Source: Bacilli bacterium | Lineage (GTDB): Bacteria > Bacillota_I > Bacilli_A > RF39 > UBA660 | Assembly (NCBI GenBank): GCA_036653735.1 | Contig: JAVVTI010000001.1 | Coordinates: 8,881-72,880 of the forward strand | DNA length: 64,000 nt | Reading direction: 5' to 3' | Shown here: positions 3,624 to 61,048 of the stretch, in pieces | Numbering within the stretch: the first letter of the stretch is position 1 | Layout: each line of letters begins with the position of its first letter | Program-made: the position numbers and the translations under genes | The notes under the pieces: model-generated | What the model saw: only the letters and a program-made list of their open reading frames with translations | Told to the model about the DNA's origin: nothing | The model's database searches: none

Positions 3624-4616
3624 TTATTCAATGAATTGTTTGTGAATTAGACACAATATTAAATCTTCAACAAATCTTTCCCTTAAAGCTTGATTCATAC
3701 ATTCCAATTCTTTCGTTGTTAATAATTTATATTGCATATTTGAATTAACGAGTTTTTTGTTTTGTGATAAGATTCTTTTTGCTTCGTGTTTGATACCGTT
3801 TTCTCCATACTCAATATTCCATGCATTAGCATAAATTGGACAATTATATAATTCATCACAATCTTTTAATCTGTCGGACAAAACTTTAAAATAGTCGGTT
3901 CTTATTTCTTTTGATAAATAAATAATATCTTGCAATTTTTTAATGCCGTATTCTTTCATTGTTTTTTTGCGAATATCTAAAAAGATAGAACGTTGATGCT
4001 CATTACAGATATATTCTTTCTGTATATATTTTTTTAAGGTTTCGTTATATTCCATTTTATATAATTTGAATGTGTCGCTATATAAAATTAGGGAACGTTG
4101 CTTTAATGATTTCAATGCGTTGTTCACAATTTCTTTAATTATCTTATCTGTGACATTAAAGAAAATTCCTATGTCACGATATTTATCATTTTCTGAATCT
4201 TCTTTTGTGTAATAAGTAGTCGATTTTGTCGGGATATTATTAATATATTCCCATCTTTTATTATTCTTTGTTTCATAGTAAGTGTTATTGACCATATAGA
4301 AATATTTTGCCATTTCTGAATAAGTCATTGTAACTTTGTGTGTGTTATCTTTTGATAAATGTAAAATTAATAAATCTTCAATATACTCTGTAAATTTTGC
4401 CCTATGTTCTAAAAAAAGTAATTCCTTTTCGTCATATATATTTGTAATTGTTATTTTCCCATAAGACGGAATGATATTCATAAAATTATTTAATATTTTT
4501 AATTGAGCAGTTTTACTACCTTTTTCCAATATAGGTTCTTTTGTGATTTCGCAAAATTCCTCATAAGTTATTGTTTTACCTACATAATCTTGCAAATAGT
4601 TATATGGATTTATCAT
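3624..4616 (-). CDS. Hypothetical protein
   Basis: 330-aa ORF, no family recognised. Tightly packed with the downstream gene. Confidence 0.55.
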   Translation of the reverse strand: MINPYNYLQDYVGKTITYEEFCEITKEPILEKGSKTAQLKILNNFMNIIPSYGKITITNIYDEKELLFLEHRAKFTEYIEDLLILHLSKDNTHKVTMTYSEMAKYFYMVNNTYYETKNNKRWEYINNIPTKSTTYYTKEDSENDKYRDIGIFFNVTDKIIKEIVNNALKSLKQRSLILYSDTFKLYKMEYNETLKKYIQKEYICNEHQRSIFLDIRKKTMKEYGIKKLQDIIYLSKEIRTDYFKVLSDRLKDCDELYNCPIYANAWNIEYGENGIKHEAKRILSQNKKLVNSNMQYKLLTTKELECMNQALRERFVEDLILCLIHKQFIE

Positions 4617-4651: not shown

Positions 4652-5593
4652 TTAAAATAATTTACAACCTTGTTCTTTAAATTTTTCAACTTGTTCTATC
4701 CAATCTTCTTTCGACCAACTAAGTTCTTCCATTAAACATTTTTTACACTTAAATTTATTAATTCCTCTTCCATACATTTTTAAATTCATTGCGACTACAT
4801 CTTTATGATAAACTGACTTTCCACAATAAACACATTTCTTTTTGAAATATTGTTCAGCCAGTTCCTTGTCTTCTAACCCCTTATATTCCATGAATTCTTT
4901 AATCGTTTCAGTGTTTGGAATATCTCTGAGTATTCCTCCGTTCCAATTTGAATGATATTCTGTACAAGTACAATTCATTCTACACCATTTTTCTTCTTGT
5001 TTAAATCCATCTTCTAATATTTTGTGGAATCTATCATATTGTTTAGGATAATAATAACTATCTAAAATCCATGTTGATTTAGTATAGTATGGGCAAGCGA
5101 TATGGCAACCTACCCTTGAATATCCATTTAAATATTTTTTATTAATTGGTATTTTATTATGAATTGTATATAGCCATAATTCTAACTCTGTCCATTTTCG
5201 TATAGGTAGGCAACCTATCCATGATTTATCTTCCCATTGAGGATTTCTGCAAATAGACCCATAATTTGAACGTGTTGAGGATTCTTCATTCCTCATTCCC
5301 ATAATAAAGAGTAAATTATTTATATTTTCAAATCTTTGTAAAGTTCCATTTTCTTTAAAAGTTGAGCAACACCATCGACGAAATCTTAAAGGAGTTCCAT
5401 GTATTTTAATCATATTATAGAAACTTTTATTCTTACCATTATTATCTTTTACTGTTACGATTTCAATATCATTTCTAGCTTTAACTTCTTTATACACATC
5501 TGAACTATCCAGTGTTGTATTATTAAAAATTGGCTTATAATTATTCGTTATTTTTTGCAATAAATATTCTGATAATTTACTATCTTTACCCAT
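4652..5593 (-). CDS. PP-loop ATPase / PAPS-reductase-family domain (DndC/CysH-like). The frame is open about 35 codons upstream with no ATG.
   Basis: PP-loop-like SMGKDS motif right at the annotated start; the upstream in-frame extension reads ...ILTTSMGKDS. Cys-rich C-terminus (CVYCGK ... CKKC). The frame stays open through the (CT)9 repeat into ORF 5646..5975. Confidence 0.55.
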   Translation of the reverse strand: MGKDSKLSEYLLQKITNNYKPIFNNTTLDSSDVYKEVKARNDIEIVTVKDNNGKNKSFYNMIKIHGTPLRFRRWCCSTFKENGTLQRFENINNLLFIMGMRNEESSTRSNYGSICRNPQWEDKSWIGCLPIRKWTELELWLYTIHNKIPINKKYLNGYSRVGCHIACPYYTKSTWILDSYYYPKQYDRFHKILEDGFKQEEKWCRMNCTCTEYHSNWNGGILRDIPNTETIKEFMEYKGLEDKELAEQYFKKKCVYCGKSVYHKDVVAMNLKMYGRGINKFKCKKCLMEELSWSKEDWIEQVEKFKEQGCKLF

Positions 5594-5645
5594 TGATGTT
5601 GTTAAAATACATTGGTAACCTTTTTGAAGAACATAATAATTATAT

Positions 5646-5975
5646 TTAATTTCTAAGACAGAAAGGCTCTCTCTCTCTCTCTCTAATAGATTTCTTTAAT
5701 CTTTGATAGGTTTCTTCCCAAGTTTCCAAATCTTTATTATCAGGTATATCAATTTCTTTATTTTTGTTATGTGTTTTATAATAATAAGAGTGTTCATAAG
5801 TCAAATTATTATATTCTCCAATAACTTTTAATCTACAAATTTTAATTTGTTTTCCATCTTTAGAAAACCCTTTTATAATCATTCTATCTATCCATAGTTT
5901 ATCTTCATCATAATTAGATAAATCTATTCCAAAACTTTTTAACATATTTCTATATGGTTTAAATATCGGTAGCAT
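5646..5975 (-). CDS. N-terminal fragment ORF ending in RERERE, encoded by a (GA)n repeat. Probably the 5' part of the PAPS-reductase-like gene, separated by a frameshift.
   Basis: 109-aa ORF. It stops just past the (CT)9 tract. The downstream ORF's frame is +1 relative to it and lacks its own start. Confidence 0.45.
   Translation of the reverse strand: MLPIFKPYRNMLKSFGIDLSNYDEDKLWIDRMIIKGFSKDGKQIKICRLKVIGEYNNLTYEHSYYYKTHNKNKEIDIPDNKDLETWEETYQRLKKSIREREREPFCLRN
5667..5684. repeat. (CT)9 dinucleotide simple-sequence repeat inside coding sequence
   Basis: ctctctctctctctctct counted directly in the sequence. Adding one CT unit would fuse ORFs 5646..5975 and 4652..5593 in frame. Confidence 0.9.
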
Positions 5976-6015
5976 TTTTCTCCTTTTCTATTCTAATTTC
6001 ATTTTTATACAAATT

Positions 6016-13947: not shown

Positions 13948-14339
13948 TATTTTATAAGTCGGTGCTAATTTATACTACAATCCATTAAACCAATTCGGTG
14001 TTTTAACACATATAGATATTGGTATAAAATTTTTAGGTAGTTTATTCGCCATTGCAAAGTAACTTATGTAAATCATATTTGTTCCTCCTTTTATTTTTAT
14101 GCATATTTAATTATAATTATTTTTTATATATTTGACTATATAGTATCATTGTGAATATGATTAATCCCTCCTTGTTAATATTCATTTAATGTGGCTTAGT
14201 GATTAAATAACTTACTCTGATTTTTATTATTTCAATACCACCTTTATATATTATAACATATTATATTATATATGTCAAATTATATTATATAAATAATTAA
14301 TAAGTATATAATCATATATAATAATAATATATGCCAGTC

Positions 14340-14670
14340 GGCAGAATTAGGTTAGTAGGGAATGCTTACGGAATGGCTTACACCATTGCCTACACCATTG
14401 GGGGATTTTTGAGTATTTTTTATTCAAAATAATTAATAATTGATTGATATGTAAAAAGGATACATAATCATTTTCATATAGAGTATATAACTAATAAAAA
14501 ATGATTATGTATCCTTTTTACATTATGTGTATTATAATATAATATTATTAAAATTATATGGTATCATTTTATACAAGCTAATCATGTGTATTCAGAATCC
14601 CTTGACCTTAAAAATGGCGTAAGCCATTCAAATGCGTAAGCATTCTCTACTAACCCTACTAACCATTTTA
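14340..14670. repeat. Large imperfect palindrome (arms about 14350-14388 and 14601-14665) enclosing a perfect 25-bp inverted repeat, 14450-14474 / 14498-14522
   Basis: Inner IR TGTAAAAAGGATACATAATCATTTT matches its reverse complement AAAATGATTATGTATCCTTTTTACA exactly. Outer arms share GGTTAGTAGGG, AATGCTTACG and GAATGGCTTAC blocks. Confidence 0.7.
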
Positions 14671-14729
14671 CAATAATGAAAAATAGATTATATAGTATTT
14701 TTATATTATTATATATTATAATATATTAT

Positions 14730-15168
14730 TAAATAGTTATACTTAATAAATAGTTATATTTAATAATATATTATAACTAACTTATATACTTAATATAATA
14801 TATAATACTTGTAGTTTTAATTAAGTTCAAGTTCGCTGACGTAATAAAATAAATTATATGGGTATATCTCAATCCTGCTACGCAGTCTTTCGATATAAAC
14901 ACCCATATAATTTATTTTATTTTTGTCCTGAAATGTTTTTTCATTTTTATAAATAAGTACACTCAAATGCCACCTTACGGTGTCCTTTTCGTAGACGTAC
15001 TTATTTATAAAAATTAAAAAAATTCCAGTTTATTCCAGTTTATTATTATTATTATAATATATAGTTATATCTTATTATTATTATTATATGTTTATTATAA
15101 TATATTACATAGTTATATGAATTTATTTATTATTATAATAATATATAACTATTTAATATAACTATTTA
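14730..15168. repeat. Iteron-like 12-mer TAAATAGTTATA: two direct copies at 14730-14758, two inverted copies at 15144-15168, extra ATAGTTATA copies at 15061 and 15111. Region also holds 17-21-bp inverted repeats (14842-14920, 14944-15013) and tandem CCAGTTTATT x2
   Basis: Read directly from the sequence. The repeats flank palindromes in a 1.2-kb non-coding region between divergent operons. Confidence 0.6.
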
Positions 15169-15286
15169 AAGTAATTAAGATAAAAAAGATAAAAATAAAA
15201 TTATAATTTATATAATATTAAAATACCCGTTTTTTTAGATAAATTGACTCAAACCTATATAAATCAATGGGTACAGAGTTTTTGAA

Positions 15287-59429: not shown

Positions 59430-60143
59430 TTATTTTGTCCATTGTTCAGCCATGGCTTTGGCAATGCCAGGGAACGTTTTACTTCTAATCAACGCTCTTT
59501 CTTGTGGTGTTTTAGCATTTACTAGAGCGTCAAAGAACCATAACGGTTGACGTTTAATTTTACCAGTTTTCTTATCTGTCCATTCTTTAAATTCTCCTTT
59601 CCCAACTATATCTGTAGGAATTAAATTAGGTAAACCTTTTAACCAAAGACACGTTGACTTTTCAAATTCATCTCCAAATTCCCAAGGGTGAATTATTTGA
59701 CTAGATTTAATTGGGAATGAATATTTTTCTTGTAAATCTGGAAAATGCTTTGCTATATAATTCCCACTAATAATTCCAATTGGATTCTCAATTGCTATTT
59801 TATCACAATCAGCATTAATAAAGTTCATAAAAAATTCGATACCTTCTCTTTGCCTACCATCTTTCCGTTTCTTTTCAAAATGAGCCGCCCCACTTACTGC
59901 TAAATGAGTACATGGTGGAAATGCAATAATCATATCCCATTTCCCATTAATTTTATGTGAAGTTCCGTCAACTGTATTAAAACTACAATTTCCGTTTAGT
60001 AATGGTAGTACATTTTGTTTAATGTGCCATTCTTGCCCCCCCCCACTCTCATTGATTAAATCACATGAATAAGCTTTATGCCCTAGTTTTCTTAATTCTT
60101 TTGTTACCGCTTGACTTTCTTCACACGCAACTAATATTCTCAT
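59430..60143 (-). CDS. Divergent DNA (cytosine-5)-methyltransferase-like protein lacking canonical motif I. Likely true start MRILVACEESQ at 60143.
   Basis: FPPCTHLAVSG (PC catalytic-Cys motif IV-like) and IENPIGI (ENV-like motif VI). No FxGxGG SAM motif. Translationally coupled to the upstream Dcm gene. Confidence 0.4.
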   Translation of the reverse strand: MRILVACEESQAVTKELRKLGHKAYSCDLINESGGGQEWHIKQNVLPLLNGNCSFNTVDGTSHKINGKWDMIIAFPPCTHLAVSGAAHFEKKRKDGRQREGIEFFMNFINADCDKIAIENPIGIISGNYIAKHFPDLQEKYSFPIKSSQIIHPWEFGDEFEKSTCLWLKGLPNLIPTDIVGKGEFKEWTDKKTGKIKRQPLWFFDALVNAKTPQERALIRSKTFPGIAKAMAEQWTK

Positions 60144-61048
60144 TTTTTTATATCTCCTTTTATATTTTTTAAAATATGTGATATTATATCTACAGTCCAA
60201 CCGTTCCCAATTGCAGAATATCGCCTAGAATCTGACACATTATCAGTATAATTATCTGGCAATGTTTGTAATCTTTCATATTCTATTGGCATAAGTTTTC
60301 TAATTTTATTGTTTTGGAATATTTTTTTTACAAGATTCCCTCCATTCCCATCACACAATAAAGTATTACATTTATGATTTAATCCGTAGACTTCTTTTGT
60401 CTGTCTGTGTCCACTTAAATGGATTGTTGCTTTTACTTTTACGTCACCATCATGTATCGTTATTGGATATTTTGTATACCAATATTTTTTAGGCACATTT
60501 TCTTCTGGTTCAACAATATCTTTGAGTAAAATCCCTTGGTCAATGGGTTGTATTACATTTGGAATATTAGTCCAATATAATCGTTTTCTTTCTGCTGCAC
60601 AAACCAAAGACGAATTAATCATAATTGGCTCAACCCCAACTATTTCAGTTATTAAATTTTTCCATTTATTTTCCATGCTTGCCACATTTTCTAATAAAAA
60701 ATATTTTGGTTTCACATATTTTAATATTCTTATATAGTCATAGAATAAACCACTTTTTTCTCCGTTTAGACCGATTACTTCACCTCTATCATATTTATAA
60801 TTACTTAAATCTTGACAAGGACTTCCGCCTATAATAATATCTATTGGCATGATTTTATTTAAAGTTTCTTCTGTAATATTTCTTATATCTCCGAGTTGGA
60901 TTATATTAGGATAATTCTTTTTGCTAATTTTTATTGAATATTCATCAATTTCGCTTGCATAATAATTATCAATTTCATCTCTCTTTCTCTCTCTCTCTAA
61001 TGCAACCATTCCACAACTTATTCCATCAAACAAACTTAATACATTCAT
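60140..61048 (-). CDS. dcm: DNA (cytosine-5)-methyltransferase
   Basis: Motif I LSLFDGISCG; IV GGSPCQDLS; VI LLENV; X GNGWTVDII. Confidence 0.85.
   Translation of the reverse strand: MNVLSLFDGISCGMVALERERKRDEIDNYYASEIDEYSIKISKKNYPNIIQLGDIRNITEETLNKIMPIDIIIGGSPCQDLSNYKYDRGEVIGLNGEKSGLFYDYIRILKYVKPKYFLLENVASMENKWKNLITEIVGVEPIMINSSLVCAAERKRLYWTNIPNVIQPIDQGILLKDIVEPEENVPKKYWYTKYPITIHDGDVKVKATIHLSGHRQTKEVYGLNHKCNTLLCDGNGGNLVKKIFQNNKIRKLMPIEYERLQTLPDNYTDNVSDSRRYSAIGNGWTVDIISHILKNIKGDIKK

Follow-up and report, generated by a model that had tools for sequence, protein, structure and literature searches.

The Repeat and Its Reading Frames

The window analyzed here is a 64,000-nucleotide stretch of contig JAVVTI010000001.1 from the Bacilli bacterium assembly GCA_036653735.1, and positions refer to it unless a related locus is named. 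It contains a gene resembling 3'-phosphoadenosine 5'-phosphosulfate (PAPS) reductases that is interrupted by a dinucleotide repeat. At positions 5667..5684, the plus strand reads CTCTCTCTCTCTCTCTCT, or (CT)9, and the coding minus strand reads (AG)9 as a perfect repeat. This simple sequence repeat (SSR) is the only dinucleotide run of seven or more units in the window, the runner-up being (TC)6. The count of (AG)7-or-longer runs in 100 dinucleotide-preserving shuffles of the window is 0.00. The original prediction, made from the DNA letters alone, was that a (CT)9 repeat interrupts a gene at this position, and the sequence bears this out.

The upstream part of the gene is the 109-residue open reading frame (ORF) designated ORF A. 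It is composed of residues 1-102 of the ancestral protein, followed by seven out-of-frame residues (PFCLRN) and a TAA codon. The ORF ends in ...SIREREREPFCLRN*, and translation through the tract gives S-I-R-E-R-E-R-E-P-F-C-L-R-N-stop. Termination occurs 21 nucleotides past the tract, stop codon counted, and the repeat encodes RERERE, both as first described. ORF A aligns with the N-termini of full-length homologues, including the invariant W28 and K45. The AAGGAG at 5980..5985 is the sole ribosome-binding site for the split gene.

The downstream part is an open frame that spans the tract. The first ATG, GTG, or TTG codon in this frame is the ATG at 5593, which encodes the M of the S-M-G-K-D-S motif. 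The 34 codons 5' of this ATG are open, in agreement with the earlier estimate of about 35 open codons through the repeat with no start codon of their own. In this 28% GC genome, the two halves of the gene have kept their full open frames of 109 and 347 codons, and no further lesions are present.

The addition of one AG unit produces a single ORF of 441 residues, and the removal of two units produces a single ORF of 439 residues. Tract lengths of 7, 10, and 13 units are thus in frame (ON), and lengths of 8, 9, 11, and 12 are out of frame (OFF). That one more CT unit restores a single ORF had been predicted correctly; the length given for it, about 460 residues, had not. In the (AG)10 reading, the tract is AGA GAG AGA GAG AGA GAG AGC and encodes R-E-R-E-R-E-S. 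This run uses GAG three times and AGC once, codons that make up 11.9% of Glu codons and 5.4% of Ser codons in the window phage. Given the R-E-R-E-R-E-S peptide and the codon usage of the window, the probability of a perfect run is approximately 2e-5. Because a perfect run requires rare codons, the tract is, by codon usage, not simply a consequence of the encoded peptide. An ON relative (protein P0035) has TEREKKS at the tract position, which is an interrupted tract.

The Two ORFs as a Single Gene

The fused translation matches the Pfam family PAPS_reduct (PF01507) with 73.9 bits against a cutoff of 22.5 (E = 2e-20). The match covers fused residues 123-292 and profile positions 2-170 of 175, and it begins six residues ahead of the ATG at 5593. 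The hidden Markov model comparison proposed with the original prediction therefore gives a PAPS_reduct match above the gathering score. The alignment to phrog_424 covers residues 49-324 and runs straight across the tract.

A search of 5.8 billion protein clusters with the fused query returned 737 relatives. Among the best 120 of these, most are single proteins of 415-448 residues that cover 100% of the fused query. Homologues consistently encoding two proteins with independent starts were thus not what the comparison found. In an alignment of 46 family members, the (AG)10 product is free of gaps at the junction. At the tract position, ERERES / xKExES recurs as a motif, with a nearly invariant S104.

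An AlphaFold2 model of the (AG)10 product, built from the same alignment, forms one chain with a predicted local distance difference test (pLDDT) score of 92.1 and a predicted template-modeling (TM) score of 0.85. The residues encoded by the tract fall midway along helix 94-118 (pLDDT 98), which leads into strand beta1 (122-126) and then into the PP-loop. According to the model, a product initiated at the ATG at 5593 would have neither this helix nor strand beta1. Homology and the predicted structure show the locus to be one gene for a putative PAPS-reductase-like PP-loop enzyme of approximately 441 residues, split at the repeat. The profile matches, full-length homologues, gap-free alignment, and single-chain model all uphold the earlier assignment of both ORFs to one PAPS-reductase-family gene.

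GenBank annotates the locus as two pieces (records MEG1994817.1 and MEG1353667.1; window 5593-5650 and 5690). The PP-loop fragment is given an ATT start in one case (332 residues, P0001) and a TTA start in the other (344 residues, P0121). The second of the two metagenome-assembled genomes (MAGs) concerned is apparently annotated with genetic code 4, as Malacoplasma. The frameshift is masked in GenBank because these non-canonical starts were called. Start calls of this kind cause such switches to be overlooked in databases, which is a warning for users of annotation.

Tract-Length Polymorphism in Sister Lineages

Several short homologues in the family proved to be OFF alleles at the same tract, and their DNA was retrieved and compared. 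Related loci are designated by L numbers and family proteins by P numbers. The P0043/P0128 lineage has two haplotypes. In haplotype A, L169 and L171 carry (AG)7 and are OFF, whereas L173 carries (AG)9 and is ON. The flanks of L169 and L173 differ by 0 of 1200 and 1 of 1000 nucleotides, and L169 is a 110-kb contig with 261x coverage. In haplotype B, L170 is OFF with (AG)8 and L172 is ON with (AG)9, with 2 of 1200 and 1 of 1000 mismatches in the flanks. The P0024/P0072 lineage contains L162, which is OFF with (AG)6, and L174-176, which are ON with (AG)7 (0 of 1200 and 1 of 1000 mismatches).

In the P0151/P0050 lineage, which is nearest to the window, L180 is OFF with (AG)8 and L181 is ON with (AG)9, and the flanks are more divergent. 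In the P0027 group, L161 is OFF with (AG)8, and the intact proteins of the group need (AG)9. The near-identical ON and OFF backgrounds thus differ by 0-3 mismatches over 2.2 kb of flanking sequence. Only the in-frame tract length of each pair yields a protein of 426-444 residues. The differing lengths are each reproduced in separate assemblies, including the 261x contig.

A protein tree of the P0027 group (16 ON and 13 OFF proteins) has the two states interspersed, with a Fitch minimum of seven changes. At least two changes are robust, as they involve ON/OFF pairs that are one residue apart and at least 13 residues from all other proteins. Of the 45 members of the OFF cluster, almost all are OFF and one is ON; the largest ON cluster counts 261 members.

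These alleles show that, as read from the assembled sequences, the tract changes length and flips the gene between ON and OFF in four sister lineages, in three of them on near-identical backgrounds. The polymorphism supports phase variation by a change in tract length, and slipped-strand length change had been named among the possible causes from the start. Because OFF and ON alleles coexist on identical backgrounds, the OFF state would seem to be usually transient.

The Window's Own Lineage and Alternative Explanations

Seven further loci of the window phage were recovered. Their sources are the MAG to which the window belongs, another MAG that was binned as Malacoplasma sp., and the Logan assemblies of SRR25820357/362/363/365/367. 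All samples are apparently from one project. Five of these loci are identical to the window over the 1,324-nucleotide gene. The window locus is probably the OFF allele of a switch that still operates, and we infer from the sister lineages that switching continues in the window's own lineage as well.

Several results weigh against this reading. All seven assemblies of the lineage (eight loci) carry (AG)9, which is OFF, and no length variation is seen among them. One locus, L168, is 1.4% divergent from the window and still carries (AG)9. Its 19 differences (8 synonymous and 11 nonsynonymous) do not depart clearly from the neutral expectation and are compatible with relaxed constraint. An exact look-up of the predicted products of (AG)5-13 other than 9 in a collection of 15 billion proteins found none, and a gapped DNA pattern for other tract lengths had no match in JGI metagenomes or IMG/VR. 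In addition, re-expansion of the tract is not directly observed, since all OFF alleles found are contractions. Separately, none of 50,697 GenBank phages matched the 3 kb surrounding the locus at the nucleotide level. A single-protein scan of IMG/VR also gave no match, and relatives emerged only with an alignment-based scan.

The strongest alternative, though still unlikely, is a recently fixed pseudogene. One slippage deletion would have killed the gene, which would now be decaying, and the tract would be mutable with no biological weight to the switch here. The (AG)9 common to two strains 1.4% apart, the ratio of nonsynonymous to synonymous differences, and the lack of a recorded ON allele in this lineage all favor a pseudogene, and they keep it in contention. 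Set against these are the open halves with no other lesion, a frame that a single slippage step would bring back, and the coexistence of OFF and ON alleles on identical backgrounds in sister lineages. The fixed (AG)9 also comes from one project in a barely sampled lineage. The remaining three explanations amount, taken together, to a small chance.

A genuinely split gene, with an N-terminal domain protein and a PP-loop protein that each function, is highly improbable. It would agree with the two proteins annotated by NCBI, and related OFF loci with an inverted 5' segment (described below) likewise have the N-terminal piece as a separate ORF. The PP-loop frame, however, has no ATG, GTG, or TTG before the M of SMGKDS, the starts called by NCBI are ATT and TTA, and the product from the ATG at 5593 would miss strand beta1 and helix 94-118. 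The break falls within this one predicted helix, and no homologue lineage is consistently split.

Programmed recoding, by which a +1 ribosomal frameshift (for example at CUU-AGA-A before the stop) or transcriptional slippage would give the full-length protein, is marginally less probable again. A Ty1-like CUU AGA A heptamer does occur in frame 0, two codons ahead of the TAA. Ribosomal frameshifting at this site is rejected. The homologues are overwhelmingly in frame, so the frameshift arrangement is not conserved. AGA is the commonest Arg codon here (64%), and a hungry-codon pause is not expected. A shift at CUU-AGA would also exchange the ESLSVL segment, with its nearly invariant S104, for EPFCL. 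The sister-lineage OFF alleles are off by -2 or -4 nucleotides, which is not one fixed configuration. A sequencing or assembly indel in a genome that really has (AG)10 and an intact gene, one of the options raised in the original prediction, is very unlikely and the least probable of all: dinucleotide repeats can stutter in libraries based on the polymerase chain reaction, but the same (AG)9 recurs in seven assemblies, for which different pipelines were used (NCBI MAGs, Logan), and also in a second strain that is 19 single-nucleotide differences away, no (AG)10 product is on record, and the sister-lineage lengths are themselves reproducible.

Other Switch Types in the Gene Family

Family members were compared by tblastn with 84 related loci from IMG/VR and GTDB genomes. 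The gene is intact at 60 loci and disrupted at 24, and the disruptions are highly patterned (positions are listed in Table 1). Loci without an SSR or inverted repeats are all intact, with the exception of L081 and L084.

Eleven loci have a poly-G tract of G6-G11 about 116 nucleotides into the gene, near codon 40, where G41 is nearly invariant. Eight of the 11 are frameshifted exactly at the tract, each one base from an in-frame length. The poly-G tract could be a third switch type or a homopolymer sequencing error.

Inversions are present in 14 loci from three lineages. In these loci, the ribosome-binding site, the start codon, and the first 66-105 codons are on the opposite strand. The segments are bounded by perfect inverted repeats of 13-16 nucleotides with the common core AATAAAAYCA. 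Inversion in silico regains ORFs of 411-425 residues in 14 of 14 loci. Five of 10 restored proteins are present letter for letter in a public collection; the clusters to which they belong (1,215 and 189 members) contain both full-length and truncated proteins. The ON-orientation loci L182-184 and the OFF locus L031 have the same arms. Their 254-bp inner segment is reverse-complemented, with 11 mismatches in that orientation versus 168 in the same orientation. Because the same arms enclose the segment in both orientations and restored proteins are on record, the inversions are, on the evidence of the assembled loci, real invertible switches with both orientations in nature.

The arms are placed near residue 65, 88, or 103 depending on the lineage, and such varied placement suggests that they arose independently. 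A recombinase was looked for within 4 kb of the L022 invertible segment and was not found. In the window, no inverted repeats bracket ORF A; there are only weak AT-rich pairs, none flanking the segment.

Nature of the Protein

The predicted protein is composed of an N-terminal beta-rich domain, a long helix, a PP-loop domain with CC...CxxxC cysteines, and a Cys-rich C-terminal region. The PP-loop motif SGGxDS is present as the variant S-M-G-K-D-S and is preceded by the predicted strand 122-126. Residues S128, G130, K131, D132, and S133 are invariant among the 46 family members. Conserved cysteines of the alignment occur in R-x-C-C (C203 and C204) and G-C-x-x-x-C-P (C291 and C295). The C-terminal region contains two CxxC pairs and an invariant G-C-x-L-F at its extreme end (C438, L440, and F441). 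The R-x-C-C and G-C-x-x-x-C-P cysteines resemble the CC...CxxC [4Fe-4S] ligands of adenosine 5'-phosphosulfate (APS) reductases and DndC.

The fold is of the CysH-like alpha/beta type. The top Foldseek matches in the PDB are 1sur, 6vpu, 2goy, and 7lhr (E ~1e-9, target-normalized TM scores of 0.64-0.69). Assignment to the assimilatory CysH proteins is nonetheless rejected. The scores are 34.9 versus a required 165.1 bits for TIGR00434, 34 versus 154 for NF002537, and 32.1 versus 235.3 for TIGR02055, and every CysH or APS-reductase equivalog cutoff is missed by more than 100 bits. The fused sequence also lacks the catalytic C-terminal ECG[LI]H and has ~130 extra Cys-rich residues instead. NCBIfam gives sub-threshold matches only, and no functional equivalog can be assigned.

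The best defense-system model in PADLOC is BrxP of BREX type 4 (E = 2.6e-28), matched over the PAPS domain only. Full BrxP identity or membership of a BREX type 4 system is rejected, as the match covers profile positions 115-346 of 779 and BREX neighbors are absent. The window contains no cysteine desulfurase and no BREX or dnd gene context. No DndC model is among the NCBIfam matches at E <= 0.1; no search for DndD or DndE was made. A class-V aminotransferase / cysteine desulfurase gene (PF00266 Aminotran_5, E = 1e-55) is directly downstream in two relatives only.

The failed CysH cutoffs, the BrxP-like domain, and the desulfurase neighbors in relatives suggest a putative nucleic-acid-modifying, possibly sulfur-transferring enzyme rather than a sulfate-assimilation gene. 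The product had been proposed as a putative DNA-modification or DndC-like enzyme. The modification half of that proposal agrees with the present reading, and the match to the DndC family was not obtained.

Proposed Mechanism

The hypermutable (AG)n tract is proposed to act as a contingency locus that governs the reading frame. Slipped-strand mispairing during replication of the phage DNA would add or remove AG units. Tracts of 10, 7, or 13 units would give the full enzyme, and other lengths would give only an N-terminal fragment of ~106-109 residues. With the (AG)9 of the window, translation would stop after the 109-residue fragment. The PP-loop part would have no usable start, so the gene would be OFF. 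In the ON state, the enzyme would modify phage nucleic acid, perhaps with sulfur. By analogy with the agt gene of phage T2, mixtures of ON and OFF phages may hedge between defenses that are blocked by the modification and defenses that target it.

Relation to Known Systems

Phase variation by SSRs is classical in bacteria. In Helicobacter pylori, oipA and sabA vary in phase through CT/AG dinucleotide repeats, and SSR-controlled phase-variable methyltransferases constitute phasevarions. A review of such bacterial systems is PMC11868660. The window tract resembles these bacterial loci in that dinucleotide slippage would occur in the 5' part of an ORF, and the bacterial targets are often DNA-modification genes. 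The bacterial loci are cellular, whereas the window tract is viral and lies ~100 codons into its gene, at a domain boundary.

In phages, contingency loci are a very recent finding, and the cases described so far are all homopolymers in cultured phages. Homopolymer SSR contingency loci are reported in T2 and T4, notably in the DNA glucosyltransferase gene agt (Gomez, Barrick & Waters, bioRxiv 10.1101/2025.10.21.683753). Slippage of the A run in T2 agt lets the phage hedge between TgvAB and McrBC (same source). Hypermutable poly-G tracts in Campylobacter phage genes are attributed to Sorensen et al. 2021 (Cell Rep 35:109214) as cited in PMC12823448. Like T2 agt, the present locus has an SSR inside a phage coding sequence whose slippage would cause a reversible frameshift, and the T2 target is a DNA-modification gene. 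Unlike T2 agt and the Campylobacter phage tracts, the repeat here is a dinucleotide, (AG)n, that also encodes the conserved ERERES helix. It further differs from T2 agt in that the gene is of the PAPS-reductase-like PP-loop type, the alleles come from comparison of metagenomes, and the family also has poly-G and inversion switches.

Intragenic invertons that cause premature stops are known in bacteria (Chanin et al., bioRxiv 10.1101/2023.03.11.532203), and PAPS reductase genes are not mentioned in that paper. The segments of L022, L050, and L054 share with these invertons short inverted repeats, a location partly within an ORF, and truncation at a domain boundary, as in thiC. They differ in that the genes belong to phages or prophages and the segment bears the ribosome-binding site, the start codon, and the N-terminal domain.

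The family shares with BrxP and DndC a PAPS-reductase-type PP-loop domain, the CC...CxxxC cysteines, and, in two relatives, a downstream desulfurase. This phage family alone has the N-terminal domain and the Cys-rich C-terminal region.

The literature search found no report tying phage PAPS-reductase genes to phase variation or inversion. It likewise found no dinucleotide switch in a phage PAPS-reductase-like gene and no three convergent switch types in one phage gene family. New here are a dinucleotide-repeat switch and natural ON and OFF alleles that are visible in public metagenomes.

Phages of the gut and elsewhere often carry genes labeled 'PAPS reductase / CysH', and the usual classification of these is as auxiliary genes of sulfur metabolism. 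Three mechanistically different switches in one phage gene family would be a strong indirect sign that expression carries a context-dependent cost. Bet-hedging is expected for DNA modification and not for housekeeping-type sulfate assimilation, which makes the routine 'CysH auxiliary metabolic gene' label doubtful. It is suggested tentatively that these phage genes are instead a widespread, phase-variable class of nucleic-acid-modification genes (BrxP/DndC-like and possibly sulfur-dependent). If this is true, ON/OFF switching has evolved convergently in at least three ways in one family, by (AG)n, poly-G, and site-specific inversion of the 5' segment. Such switching could then allow phage populations to hedge against opposing host defenses in the manner proposed above.

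Genomic Context and Feature Coordinates

The window is an AT-rich (27.9% GC) segment of a tailed phage. Its genes include those for a large terminase, portal protein, and tape-measure protein, as recognized by PHROG models, together with NrdD/NrdG, a Pol III alpha-type polymerase, and one tRNA-Gln. The neighbors of the split gene are phage replication and nucleotide-metabolism genes (NrdD, NrdG, and Gp157) and genes of no known function. The adjoining 330-residue ORF has a homologue (26% identity, E = 1e-8) in the P0043/P0128 lineage, where it lies on the other side of the gene (L169, 201-1199). Its product may be a partner protein.

Two other repeats are located in methyltransferase genes of the window. 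A G9 run, which is in frame, encodes S-G-G-G; no other G/C run in this 28% GC window reaches nine nucleotides. An (AG)6A(AG)3 repeat, also in frame, spans codons 17-23 of a C5-cytosine methylase gene, where it encodes LERERKR. Neither varies in length, both being fixed in three sibling contigs. With these two, all three notable non-A/T repeats of the window lie in DNA-modification genes. After the fact, this fits a phage epigenetic toolkit built on contingency tracts.

Table 1. Coordinates of the split gene, other window features, and disrupted or switch-bearing related loci.
Feature	Locus	Position	Strand	Remarks
(AG)9 simple sequence repeat	Window	5667..5684	minus	Frameshifting tract of the PAPS-reductase-like gene
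ORF A, 109 aa	Window	5646..5975	minus	N-terminal beta-rich domain and beginning of long helix
Shine-Dalgarno-like AAGGAG	Window	5980..5985	minus	4 nt 5' of the ORF A ATG; read directly from the sequence
PP-loop / PAPS-reductase part and Cys-rich C-terminal region, open frame	Window	4652..5695	minus	Spans the tract
330-aa ORF adjoining the gene	Window	3624..4616	minus	No Pfam or PHROG match
G9 run (plus-strand C9)	Window	60036-60044	minus	In gene ~59430-60143; 237-aa DNA methyltransferase, phrog_757, E = 2.6e-56
(AG)6A(AG)3	Window	60978-60998	minus	In gene 60140-61048; C5-cytosine methylase, PF00145, E = 1e-38
Poly-G tract, frameshifted	L018	~4116
Poly-G tract, frameshifted	L067	~4116
Poly-G tract, frameshifted	L069, L070, L072	~3906
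Poly-G tract, frameshifted	L071	~3941
Poly-G tract, frameshifted	L074	~4027
Poly-G tract, frameshifted	L075	~4116
Poly-G tract, in frame	L049, L062, L063
Invertible segment	L022	3741-4024		One of three lineages
Invertible segment	L050	3731-4001		One of three lineages
Invertible segment	L054	3636-3971		One of three lineages
Further inverted loci	L031, L035, L044, L047, L048, L051-053, L056, L057, L066
ON-orientation copies	L182-L184	3975-4258
22-bp tandem duplication	L081	5140-5185		Hominimerdicola aceti, presumably prophage; frame shift near residue 380
~1.1-kb insertion	L084	2865-4001		Eubacteriales MAG, presumably prophage; between residues 275 and 277
Cysteine desulfurase gene	L181	1670-2722		Recalls the DndA-DndC pairing
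Cysteine desulfurase gene	L084	4484-5509		Recalls the DndA-DndC pairing

AT-rich tandem and interspersed repeats (periods 5-48) are densely clustered at window positions 14240-15200, between the leftward and rightward gene blocks. This cluster could be an origin or a regulatory region.

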